From: Escherichia coli
GTDB taxonomy: Bacteria > Pseudomonadota > Gammaproteobacteria > Enterobacterales > Enterobacteriaceae
NCBI RefSeq assembly: GCF_024502345.1
Contig: NZ_JALDNN010000001.1
Strand: one strand, 5' to 3'
Length of the DNA stretch: 64,000 nucleotides
The notes beneath the pieces were generated by a model, which made no database searches, was not told where the DNA came from, and saw only the letters and a list, made by a program, of their open reading frames with translations. The position numbers and the translations under genes were made by a program. Shown in pieces: positions 52,890 to 55,276 of the stretch; positions within the stretch are counted from its first letter, which is position 1; each line of letters begins with the position of its first letter.

Positions 52890-53113
52890 TCCTTCAGCAA
52901 ACGGCAACTTTTATAACCAGTGTAAAAATAACGTGCCGCAATAGTCATACCTATTAATGGTAAAAAGCTGTCACAATTCATAAAAAACCTTAATATACGC
53001 CACCCTAAACATAACCAGCGTTAATGTAAGGTTTTTGTGTGGACTGGCTTCTTGATGTTTTTGCTACCTAGCTCTATGGCTTAAAAGTAATCGCGATAAC
53101 GTTAGCGGTCATC

Positions 53114-55276
53114 ATGTTCATCAGCGGGCTGGACGATTTTTTTATTGATGTCGTCTACTGGGTACGCCGCATTAAACGCAAGTTGAGTGTTTATCGCCGC
53201 TACCCGCGAATGAGTTACCGCGAACTGTATAAACCAGATGAAAAACCGTTAGCGATTATGGTTCCGGCGTGGAATGAAACGGGCGTCATCGGCAATATGG
53301 CCGAGCTGGCGGCGACCACGCTCGACTACGAAAACTATCATATCTTTGTTGGCACCTACCCCAACGACCCCGATACTCAGCGTGATGTTGACGAAGTGTG
53401 CGCTCGCTTTCCGAACGTGCATAAGGTAGTCTGCGCGCGTCCTGGCCCCACCAGCAAAGCCGACTGTCTGAACAACGTGCTGGACGCCATCACCCAGTTT
53501 GAGCGTAGCGCCAATTTCGCTTTTGCTGGTTTTATTCTGCATGACGCCGAAGATGTGATTTCACCGATGGAATTGCGTCTGTTCAACTATCTGGTCGAGC
53601 GTAAAGATCTGATTCAGATCCCGGTGTATCCGTTCGAACGCGAATGGACGCACTTCACCAGCATGACTTACATTGATGAGTTTTCAGAACTGCATGGCAA
53701 AGATGTTCCGGTGCGTGAAGCCCTCGCCGGACAAGTGCCCAGCGCAGGCGTCGGCACCTGTTTCAGCCGCCGCGCCGTGACCGCACTGTTAGCTGACGGT
53801 GACGGTATTGCTTTCGACGTGCAGAGTCTTACTGAAGATTACGACATTGGCTTCCGCCTGAAAGAAAAAGGTATGACGGAAATTTTTGTCCGTTTTCCGG
53901 TGGTGGACGAAGCCAAAGAACGCGAGCAGCGTAAATTTTTACAGCACGCACGGACATCAAACATGATCTGCGTGCGCGAATATTTCCCCGATACCTTTTC
54001 GACTGCGGTTCGACAAAAATCCCGCTGGATCATCGGCATTGTTTTCCAGGGCTTTAAAACCCATAAATGGACCTCCAGCCTGACGCTGAACTACTTTCTC
54101 TGGCGCGACCGCAAAGGGGCAATCAGTAACTTTGTCAGCTTCCTCGCGATGCTGGTGATGATCCAGCTTTTGCTGTTGCTGGCGTATGAAAGTTTGTGGC
54201 CCGATGCCTGGCATTTCCTTTCTATTTTCAGCGGCAGCGCATGGTTAATGACCCTGCTGTGGCTAAACTTTGGTTTGATGGTTAACCGCATCGTGCAGCG
54301 GGTGATTTTCGTTACTGGCTACTACGGCCTGACGCAGGGGCTGCTTTCCGTCCTGCGTCTTTTCTGGGGCAACCTGATTAACTTCATGGCCAACTGGCGC
54401 GCGCTAAAACAGGTACTCCAACACGGCGATCCACGTCGCGTCGCGTGGGATAAAACAACGCATGACTTCCCCAGCGTGACTGGCGATACCCGCTCGTTGC
54501 GCCCGTTAGGCCAAATTCTGCTGGAAAATCAGGTCATCACTGAAGAACAACTCGATACAGCACTGCGTAATCGCGTCGAAGGTCTACGCCTGGGCGGTTC
54601 AATGCTGATGCAGGGGCTGATTAGCGCCGAGCAGCTGGCACAGGCGCTGGCAGAGCAAAACGGCGTGGCGTGGGAATCCATCGATGCCTGGCAGATCCCT
54701 TCCTCGCTGATTGCCGAAATGCCGGCCTCCGTGGCGCTGCATTATGCGGTACTGCCGCTGCGTCTGGAAAATGATGAGTTAATTGTCGGCAGTGAAGATG
54801 GTATTGACCCAGTTTCGCTGGCGGCCCTGACGCGTAAAGTCGGACGCAAAGTGCGTTACGTCATTGTTCTGCGGGGACAAATTGTCACGGGGTTACGTCA
54901 CTGGTATGCACGCCGACGCGGTCACGATCCGCGGGCAATGTTGTACAATGCGGTTCAGCATCAGTGGCTCACGGAACAGCAGACCGGTGAAATCTGGCGG
55001 CAATATGTGCCGCATCAGTTCCTGTTCGCCGAAATACTGACCACGCTCGGTCATATTAATCGTTCAGCAATTAACGTGTTGTTATTGCGCCATGAACGCA
55101 GTTCTCTGCCGCTCGGCAAGTTTTTGGTCACCGAAGGTGTTATCAGCCAGGAAACGTTGGATCGCGTCCTGACAATTCAACGCGAATTACAAGTTTCGAT
55201 GCAATCACTATTACTCAAAGCAGGTTTAAACACAGAACAGGTTGCGCAACTGGAGTCCGAAAATGAAGGAGAATAA
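53114..55276 (+). CDS. nfrB: NfrB (phage N4 adsorption protein B; inner-membrane family-2 glycosyltransferase with c-di-GMP-binding C-terminal domain), open from Met at 53114 (720 aa); the expected start 25 codons upstream (GTG 53039) is followed by an in-frame TAG at 53069-53071
   Basis: ORF 53114..55276; upstream in-frame translation (V/M)DWLLDVFAT-stop-LYGLKVIAITLAVIMFISG... is continuous except for the TAG; K-12 NfrB is 745 aa from memory, which is exactly 720 + 25. Confidence 0.8.
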   Translation: MFISGLDDFFIDVVYWVRRIKRKLSVYRRYPRMSYRELYKPDEKPLAIMVPAWNETGVIGNMAELAATTLDYENYHIFVGTYPNDPDTQRDVDEVCARFPNVHKVVCARPGPTSKADCLNNVLDAITQFERSANFAFAGFILHDAEDVISPMELRLFNYLVERKDLIQIPVYPFEREWTHFTSMTYIDEFSELHGKDVPVREALAGQVPSAGVGTCFSRRAVTALLADGDGIAFDVQSLTEDYDIGFRLKEKGMTEIFVRFPVVDEAKEREQRKFLQHARTSNMICVREYFPDTFSTAVRQKSRWIIGIVFQGFKTHKWTSSLTLNYFLWRDRKGAISNFVSFLAMLVMIQLLLLLAYESLWPDAWHFLSIFSGSAWLMTLLWLNFGLMVNRIVQRVIFVTGYYGLTQGLLSVLRLFWGNLINFMANWRALKQVLQHGDPRRVAWDKTTHDFPSVTGDTRSLRPLGQILLENQVITEEQLDTALRNRVEGLRLGGSMLMQGLISAEQLAQALAEQNGVAWESIDAWQIPSSLIAEMPASVALHYAVLPLRLENDELIVGSEDGIDPVSLAALTRKVGRKVRYVIVLRGQIVTGLRHWYARRRGHDPRAMLYNAVQHQWLTEQQTGEIWRQYVPHQFLFAEILTTLGHINRSAINVLLLRHERSSLPLGKFLVTEGVISQETLDRVLTIQRELQVSMQSLLLKAGLNTEQVAQLESENEGE

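Follow-up and report, generated by a model that had tools for sequence, protein, structure and literature searches.

Recurrent amber mutation of Trp11 in nfrB, a likely natural loss-of-function allele of the N4 glycan receptor system in Escherichia coli

Introduction

In Escherichia coli, the genes nfrB, nfrA, and ybcH form a single operon (nfrBA-ybcH) for the cyclic di-GMP (c-di-GMP)-activated synthase and secretion system of the N4 glycan receptor (NGR) (PMC8669469, PMC8669472), c-di-GMP being bound by the MshEN domain of NfrB (PMC8669469). The receptor is needed by phage N4 and its Enquatrovirus relatives, by the Vequintavirinae, and by phi92-like phages (PMC8669469, PMC8669472), and a strain deleted for nfrB resists N4, Vequintavirinae, and phi92-like phages (PMC8669472). 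NGR lets N4-like phages, Vequintavirinae, and their relatives bypass the O-antigen, and this broad recognition makes them attractive for therapy. Defects of the pathway have been described by Sellner et al. in some strains (E. coli B), which carry insertion sequences (IS), deletions, or premature stops in nfrB or dgcJ that were attributed to laboratory conditions (PMC8669472), and BL21 is without N4 receptors (PMC7553319). Here, we analyze a 64-kb stretch of an E. coli genome (contig NZ_JALDNN010000001.1), referred to as the window, in which nfrB carries an in-frame amber codon in place of the TGG codon of Trp11 (W11am). As in E. coli B and BL21, the NfrB-dependent receptor pathway seems to have been lost by an ordinary inactivating mutation, a type of loss associated with N4 resistance. 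Unlike those cases, which are ascribed to laboratory adaptation, the lesions seen here occur in wild, clinical, and metagenomic E. coli, W11am itself being fixed in one major pathogenic clone.

We consider it likely that W11am is a naturally occurring loss-of-function allele of nfrB, which has recurred on at least eight haplotype groups, would probably make its carriers phage-resistant, and may be favored by a Dcm methylation site. It is in itself an ordinary loss-of-function allele, and its pattern of parallel evolution is modestly interesting.

An in-frame amber codon replaces Trp11 of NfrB

From position 53039, the window reads GTG GAC TGG CTT CTT GAT GTT TTT GCT ACC TAG CTC TAT GGC. The GTG (53039-53041) is followed by DWLLDVFAT, by TAG at 53069-53071, and then by LYGLKVIAITLAVIM, which runs into a 720-aa open reading frame (ORF) at 53114..55276. 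The TAG is in frame with both the GTG at 53039 and the 720-aa ORF; lying at codon 11, it leaves the window without an uninterrupted 745-codon frame from the GTG. Codon 11 is TGG in all seven aligned reference genomes, and the G-to-A change at 53070 is the sole difference from O157 and F9792 across 101 bp. The annotations of O157, F9792, and K-12 MG1655 start nfrB at the same GTG, giving a gene of 745 aa in O157:H7 and K-12. Besides W11*, the only residue difference between the NfrB of the window and that of K-12 is A649T. The polymorphisms of codons 1-25 other than the lesions, at 53065, 53074, 53077 (C/T), and 53113, are all synonymous third-position changes, which suggests that the N-terminus initiated at the GTG is true coding sequence, under constraint in the wild type.

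The 720-aa ORF retains the GT2 family domains (Pfam PF13632, E=2e-40, and PF13641, E=3e-35) and the C-terminal MshEN domain (PF05157, E=3.6e-14), and the operon context is that of NfrB, with nfrA overlapping by 14 nt and then ybcH. Judged by its sequence, the nfrB of the window is a pseudogene and not an intact NfrB member. The features of the locus are as follows.

53039..55276, plus strand: nfrB with one in-frame amber codon (ORF, reference alignment, Pfam domains on the 720-aa part).
53028..53031, plus strand: AAGG, a Shine-Dalgarno (SD)-like element 7 nt 5' of the native GTG; anti-SD duplex of -3.9 kcal/mol, against -2.4 before Met26.
53039..53041, plus strand: native nfrB GTG start, intact in the window; annotated in O157, F9792, and K-12, and changed to GTA in other natural lineages.
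53067..53071, no strand assigned: CCTAG, the mutated form of the ancestral Dcm site CCTGG, as read from the sequence.
53069..53071, plus strand: amber TAG in place of Trp11 TGG, with C as the fourth base (sequence, alignment).
53114..55276, plus strand: residual 720-aa ORF from Met26, the first canonical in-frame start past the stop, without the N-terminal hydrophobic segment.
55263..58235, plus strand: nfrA, 990 aa, intact, with a 14-nt overlap with the nfrB end (ORF; PMC8669469).
58236..59126, plus strand: ybcH, 296 aa, DUF4434, intact, third gene of the nfrBA-ybcH operon (ORF; PMC8669469).
51447..52889, plus strand: cusS, the upstream neighbor (ORF).
52890-53038: 149-bp gap between cusS and nfrB, within which the nfrB promoter region lies.

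The W11 amber allele is real and consists of a single G-to-A change that turns the TGG of Trp11 into TAG. The exact 720-aa Met26 product of the window is on record from 33 contigs. At the DNA level, the haplotype that combines TAG at codon 11 with TAT at codon 13 (TAG+TAT) is found in locus L010 (ERR1600703, 1 mismatch over 8,163 bp), in locus L011 (SRR6112067, 2 mismatches), and in two ENA metagenome scaffolds (9 and 21 mismatches). A sequencing or assembly error at 53070 could be suspected from the window's exact 30-mer being present in 0 of 5,426 complete genomes; its probability is practically nil, as no fewer than four assemblies, produced independently in different runs and projects, share the identical TAG+TAT haplotype. 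This recurrence across independent sequencing runs also excludes a base-calling error confined to one assembly.

These results bear out in every detail an earlier note on this DNA, made from the letters alone, which had reported an in-frame amber at codon 11 of nfrB, had expected the codon to be TGG (Trp) in K-12, in agreement with the seven-genome alignment, and had explained the lengths of 720 and 745 aa by 25 missing codons (745 - 25 = 720). The sequencing error at 53070 that it named as a possible refutation is not what the independent assemblies show. It had also considered that reference genes might start at Met26; such annotations are on record (for example CFT073 AAN79130.1, 720 aa), in a trivial sense only, as those genomes carry the same TAG. 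Absent from the note are the occurrence of the allele in well-known strains, its recurrence on many backgrounds, and the Dcm site in the ancestral sequence.

Predicted effect on NfrB and on the operon

NfrB together with NfrA and YbcH makes and exports NGR, a function that the conversion of TGG to TAG by G-to-A at 53070 would interrupt at its first gene. Without a suppressor, translation would end after 10 residues. Met26, the first canonical in-frame start, lies 42 nt past the stop and has a weaker SD pairing than the GTG (-2.4 against -3.9 kcal/mol). A product restarted there would lack the N-terminal membrane helix: the best 19-residue hydropathy value drops from 2.07 to 0.81 after the Met26 restart, the hydrophobic segment being located within residues 4-42. 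Because a membrane-embedded processive synthase thereby loses its N-terminal hydrophobic segment, the absence of the helix from the Met26 product most likely abolishes NfrB function, and NGR synthesis would be lost or strongly reduced.

The consequences may extend downstream. Because of its 14-nt overlap with the nfrB end, nfrA probably depends on translational coupling to nfrB and would be open to polar effects of the early stop, so that the expression of nfrA and ybcH would possibly be reduced through lost translational coupling and Rho-dependent polarity.

Distribution of W11-TAG in E. coli

Codon 11 was typed in 5,426 complete E. coli genomes with a 30-base megablast query placed so that every 28-base seed spans 53070. 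TAG was found in 79 genomes and TGG in 3,462. The lack of matches to the exact TAG+TAT 30-mer of the window in this set is caused by a linked synonymous single-nucleotide polymorphism (SNP); the 30-mer shifted upstream is the one that matched the 79. These proportions are not those of programmed readthrough, in which the stop would be conserved across lineages, and TAG is a derived, scattered state, found alongside other knockouts of nfrB, which argues against programmed recoding. The carriers listed are CFT073, Nissle 1917, ATCC 25922, clone D i2/i14, and their relatives, CFT073 belonging to sequence type 73 (ST73) (PMC11990801). Among JGI metagenome contigs, 0 TAG and 20 TGG copies were seen, a result that tells little beyond a low frequency, and the window haplotype had 0 matches among GTDB species representatives.

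The allele is annotated inconsistently, as a pseudogene, a 720-aa coding sequence (CDS), or a 728-aa CDS. In RefSeq, the nfrB gene of CFT073 (C_RS03030) is a pseudogene with an 'internal stop', while the original CFT073 record, AAN79130.1, gives the 720-aa Met26 form, an exact protein present on at least 1000 contigs. Identical DNA handled by the same pipeline appears as a pseudogene in CFT073 (L008:5997-8234) and as a 728-aa CDS from a non-canonical ATC in Nissle 1917 (CP022686, L009:6048-8234). Many records moreover write 'nrfB', a spelling that clashes with the name of a nitrite-reductase gene.

The nfrB genes of CFT073, Nissle 1917, and ATCC 25922 share with that of the window the same TGG11-to-TAG change, an intact downstream ORF, and intact nfrA and ybcH. 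The haplotypes are different: CFT073 departs from the window at 36 of 2,238 positions in nfrB and at 274 of 12,030 positions overall, including the SNPs flanking the amber codon (codon 13, TAT in the window and TAC in CFT073; codon 25, ATC and ATT, respectively), and its protein allele is V415I+E577D where that of the window is A649T. The nearest TGG allele to the window is that of PapRG-04-4, at 10 differences over the same 2,238 positions; that of K-12 is at 16. Both are closer to it than CFT073 is, and the window is not ST73. Taken together, the sequences indicate that the W11-TAG codons of the window and of CFT073 most likely have independent origins. The presence of W11am in CFT073 is thus already annotated, and what the window appears to add is a further, independent case from a little-sampled lineage. 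Over the 5,426 complete genomes, the best identity to the window is 99.0% over the 12 kb of the cus/nfr region (48000-60000) and 98.4% over the 25 kb of the ent/fep region (13001-38000); by this measure, the source lineage is poorly represented among finished E. coli genomes.

Recurrent inactivation of nfrB in natural lineages

The upstream DNA was read in 43 loci, which were found through Met26-start products on other protein backgrounds. The nfrB haplotypes were clustered by single linkage at 10 differences or fewer, a rough proxy for independent origins, in a sample whose composition was shaped by the choice of the exact proteins looked up. W11-TAG is present on 8 haplotype clusters. It is accompanied in the same loci by W11-TGA on 3 clusters, by loss of the start codon (GTG to GTA) on 3, by a single-base deletion within the T-run spanning codons 7-8 on 2, by stops at Y13 and at L22 on one cluster each, and by two IS or insertion junctions. 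Two clusters hold TAG together with TGA or start-loss copies that are only a few differences apart. Hence, nfrB is repeatedly inactivated in natural E. coli, through all kinds of mutation, and this recurrent knockout is a stronger signal than the Dcm hotspot discussed below.

Comparison of the TAG haplotypes with one another leads in the same direction. A third one (L012) lies 31 and 43 differences from the two others, carried by the window and by CFT073. Each TAG haplotype has a TGG counterpart that shares its flanking SNPs at 53077 and 53113, and the TAG haplotypes are mutually identical for only 116-184 bp around codon 11. Independent, recent hits would be the simplest reading of the recurrence of TAG.

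The GTG-to-GTA start loss at 53041 (L054, L066, L073, L075, and L077) is masked by gene callers, which call the gene from Met26. One T of the T5 run at 53057-53061 is lost in L059 and L078, a recurrent slippage frameshift. The 720-aa Met26 product does not serve reliably as a proxy for W11am, as some such calls stand for an intact gene, a start loss, a frameshift, or an IS. The ratio of nonsynonymous to synonymous substitution past the stop (dN/dS) was abandoned: the loci had been fetched by exact protein identity, and all differences were forced to be synonymous.

One IS insertion involves the amber codon itself. In L060 (L060:85-135, GCA_958429625.1, equivalent to window 53066-53075), an IS5-like element of the ISKpn26 family, identified by similarity search, ends (...CTTGTTCGCACCTTCC) directly at CTAG, in nfrB codons 10/11. 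IS5-family elements target YTAR sites. Because CTAG arises only after the change of TGG to TAG, the site at which the IS later inserted seems to be a product of the amber allele.

A Dcm site at codon 11

Dcm methylates the inner C of CCWGG, and deamination of the resulting 5-methylcytosine gives a C-to-T change; the amber hotspots of lacI are the precedent for ambers at Dcm sites. The ancestral sequence ACC TGG C holds a Dcm site, CCTGG, at 53067-53071, and G53070 lies opposite the methylated inner C of the bottom-strand CCAGG, where the change is C to T. This pairing of the mutated G with a 5-methylcytosine would explain why codon 11 is the one most frequently hit. As in the known Dcm amber hotspots, the inner C of CCWGG is mutated, here on the bottom strand, by a C-to-T change that yields an amber, and the site is hit repeatedly; unlike in these, the excess over neighboring non-Dcm sites is modest and marginally significant.

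Dcm sites number 7 in the whole nfrB gene; they allow 14 deaminations, of which 5 lead to ambers (W11, Q337, W391, W551, and Q704). There are 257 nonsense paths in total, 78 of which are G:C to A:T changes, including the 5 Dcm ambers. The four sites other than that of W11 are as follows, none being assigned a strand.

54046..54050: Dcm site CCAGG, deamination of which gives the Q337 amber (sequence).
54207..54211: Dcm site CCTGG, deamination of which gives the W391 amber (390-aa product on 359 contigs).
54687..54691: Dcm site CCTGG, deamination of which gives the W551 amber, the allele of strain LD27-1 (sequence).
55147..55151: Dcm site CCAGG, deamination of which gives the Q704 amber, the allele in L018-L021 (sequence).

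Two of these ambers were met without selection for Dcm: a natural 703-aa product results from CAG704 to TAG inside CCAGG, and the 'internal stop' of LD27-1 nfrB is TGG551 to TAG inside CCTGG. By exact look-up, products truncated before the four sites are carried by 199, 359, 155, and at least 1000 contigs, respectively, and every Dcm site outranks every non-Dcm control in contig count. Such counts were rejected as a measure of mutation rate, contigs being non-independent through clonal expansion, and cluster counts were used instead. The argument that Dcm sites account for all three natural nonsense alleles (3 of 3) was downgraded from strong evidence to a difference in frequency, since truncations at six non-Dcm controls exist too. 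The data agree with the several-fold elevation expected at a Dcm site and are suggestive, without proving a hotspot.

Position 54049, the second of the two bases prone to deamination in the Dcm site CCAGG at 54046..54050, is a natural G/A polymorphism, and the A of K-12 makes Gln337 CAA. The common K-12 allele is thus itself without this site, through a Dcm-type change.

Phage resistance and alternative explanations

A cell carrying W11am would resist N4-type phages, Vequintavirinae, and other NGR-dependent phages, and either this resistance or the cost of NGR production would explain the persistence and recurrence of such alleles. From its nfrB sequence, the strain of the window is probably resistant to N4-type phages through nfrB knockout. 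In the BASEL panel, Vequintavirinae and Enquatrovirus 'invariably' lysed UTI89, 55989, and O16-restored K-12, and CFT073, also part of the panel, is absent from that list (PMC8594841). The phages of these two groups were later found to need nfrB (PMC8669472), and the insensitivity of CFT073, a TAG carrier, gives indirect support for loss of function.

The readings in which NfrB activity would survive the stop have less in their favor. That W11am marks an amber-suppressor lineage, in which a supE- or supF-type tRNA gives full-length NfrB, was proposed in the earlier note and appears very improbable. There is no tRNA gene within the 64-kb window; the supE allele is present in 156 of the 5,426 complete genomes, all 60 of those listed being K-12 laboratory derivatives, with C600, DH5alpha, and DH1 as positive controls among the matches; supF is present in one laboratory strain; and 0 of the 30 listed TAG carriers are among the listed supE or supF strains. 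Efficient amber suppressors are known to be very rare among natural isolates. A leaky hypomorph is an unlikely, though more serious, alternative, in which reinitiation at Met26 or near-cognate readthrough of the weak UAG-C context yields some active NfrB. The first in-frame ATG is indeed near the stop, all TAG lineages seen keep the 720-codon ORF intact, nfrA and ybcH are intact as well, and a little protein may suffice, as nfrB is normally expressed at a low level (PMC8669469). The intact ORF says little, however, in lineages this young and under an exact-protein look-up that forces differences to be synonymous; the restart product is deprived of its sole N-terminal hydrophobic helix, and its SD is weaker; and the NGR-dependent phages to which other strains of the panel succumb do not lyse CFT073. 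Early lacI ambers are known to allow restarts, and a C after the stop codon to weaken termination. Translational restarts after early lacI ambers were reportedly described by Files, Weber and Miller in 1974. As in lacI, the stop in nfrB is early (within the first few dozen codons) and closely followed by an in-frame start, Met26 at 42 nt; the difference is that a dispensable soluble N-terminus is lost in lacI and that a putative restart here would cost a membrane helix. Loss of function stays the preferred reading of W11am. On this point, the earlier note fared well: its expectation that a Met26 restart costs part of the first transmembrane segment agrees with the hydropathy comparison, by which the first hydrophobic helix would be removed, and of the readings it offered, natural resistance to N4 is the most reasonable. 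Its suppressor-carrying lineage finds no counterpart in the supE and supF lists, which hold laboratory K-12 derivatives without any listed TAG carrier.

As to the origin of the allele, a single TAG mutation that later reached the other nfrB backgrounds through very short gene-conversion tracts, perhaps with positive selection for phage resistance, is unlikely. E. coli recombines frequently, the neighboring cus region is highly mosaic, and the 116-184 bp that are identical around the codon in TAG haplotypes are also invariant in TGG alleles, leaving no SNP to mark the ends of a tract. Such a scenario requires no fewer than 7 separate imports, all of them below ~120-190 bp in length, at a base that is of a known hotspot type; and the recurrence of TGA on 3 clusters, of start loss on 3, and of the T-run frameshift on 2 implies that independent hits are common in this gene. 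A further proposal goes beyond independent loss of function: codon 11 would be a mutational 'soft spot' at which Dcm methylation gives early, clean NGR knockouts under phage attack at a rate far above that of chance mutation, with an allele that perhaps keeps some NGR function through a Met26 restart or UAG-C readthrough and a fixation in ST73 that is adaptive. We hold this combination to be doubtful; if it were true, the ST73 fixation would influence which phages can infect a major clone that includes uropathogenic and probiotic strains.

Several points weigh against a recurrent, Dcm-favored loss-of-function allele that confers phage resistance. The insensitivity of CFT073 to NGR phages could instead reflect its capsule, O-antigen, or immunity systems, and a Met26 restart product or low-level readthrough of the UAG could leave residual activity. 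The surroundings of codon 11 (~120 bp) are invariant, so that short recombination tracts may have carried TAG. Truncated products also exist at all six non-Dcm Trp/Gln control codons (65, 142, 48, 80, 13, and 17 contigs). For the three adjacent G-to-A knockout sites, the cluster counts are 8:3:3, with the Dcm-target G leading (8/14), an excess of ~2.7-fold (P=0.058), and TAG against TGA at codon 11 is 8:3 (P=0.11), in a test of low power. In addition, the dcm gene lies outside the window.

In the searchable literature, nothing relevant was found on nfrB together with CFT073, Nissle, or ST73, and no paper was found that links the insensitivity of CFT073 in BASEL to the nfrB requirement. It appears to be unstated there that W11am recurs across numerous backgrounds, with fixation in the CFT073/Nissle clone, that it lies on a Dcm site, and that it may explain the insensitivity of CFT073 to NGR phages. 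Being fixed in ST73 and recurrent elsewhere, W11am predicts from sequence which strains such phages would miss, and it offers an explanation for CFT073 as the exception in the BASEL host-range panel. The allele also provides a clean natural case for testing how far Dcm methylation steers parallel gene loss.

Neighboring region and mobile elements

Upstream of nfrB, at the cusC 5' end/cusR (50200-51410), the near-identical nfr haplotypes L012 and L014 diverge sharply from the window, with dozens of clustered SNPs, which indicates that a putative boundary of a recombination mosaic separates the cus locus from the nfr locus. The gene upstream of nfrB is an ISAs1/ISEc1 transposase, instead of cusS, in O157 and other strains.

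Four IS-related genes are present in the window. Two IS5-family copies, at 8181-9186 and 60828-61833, lie in direct orientation 52.6 kb apart and bracket the ent-fep-cus-nfr region; they encode a 322-aa DDE_Tnp_1_5/DDE_Tnp_1 transposase, and their first 300 nt are 99% identical. The IS5/ISKpn26 end motif seen in L060 is absent from these two copies, whose ends differ from it. A DDE transposase gene on the minus strand (37031-38149) lies between two direct repeats of 220 nt with 95% identity (36346-36565 and 38198-38417), and an IS3-family integrase-core ORF (rve, rve_3, HTH_21) is located near the window end, at 62685-63566.

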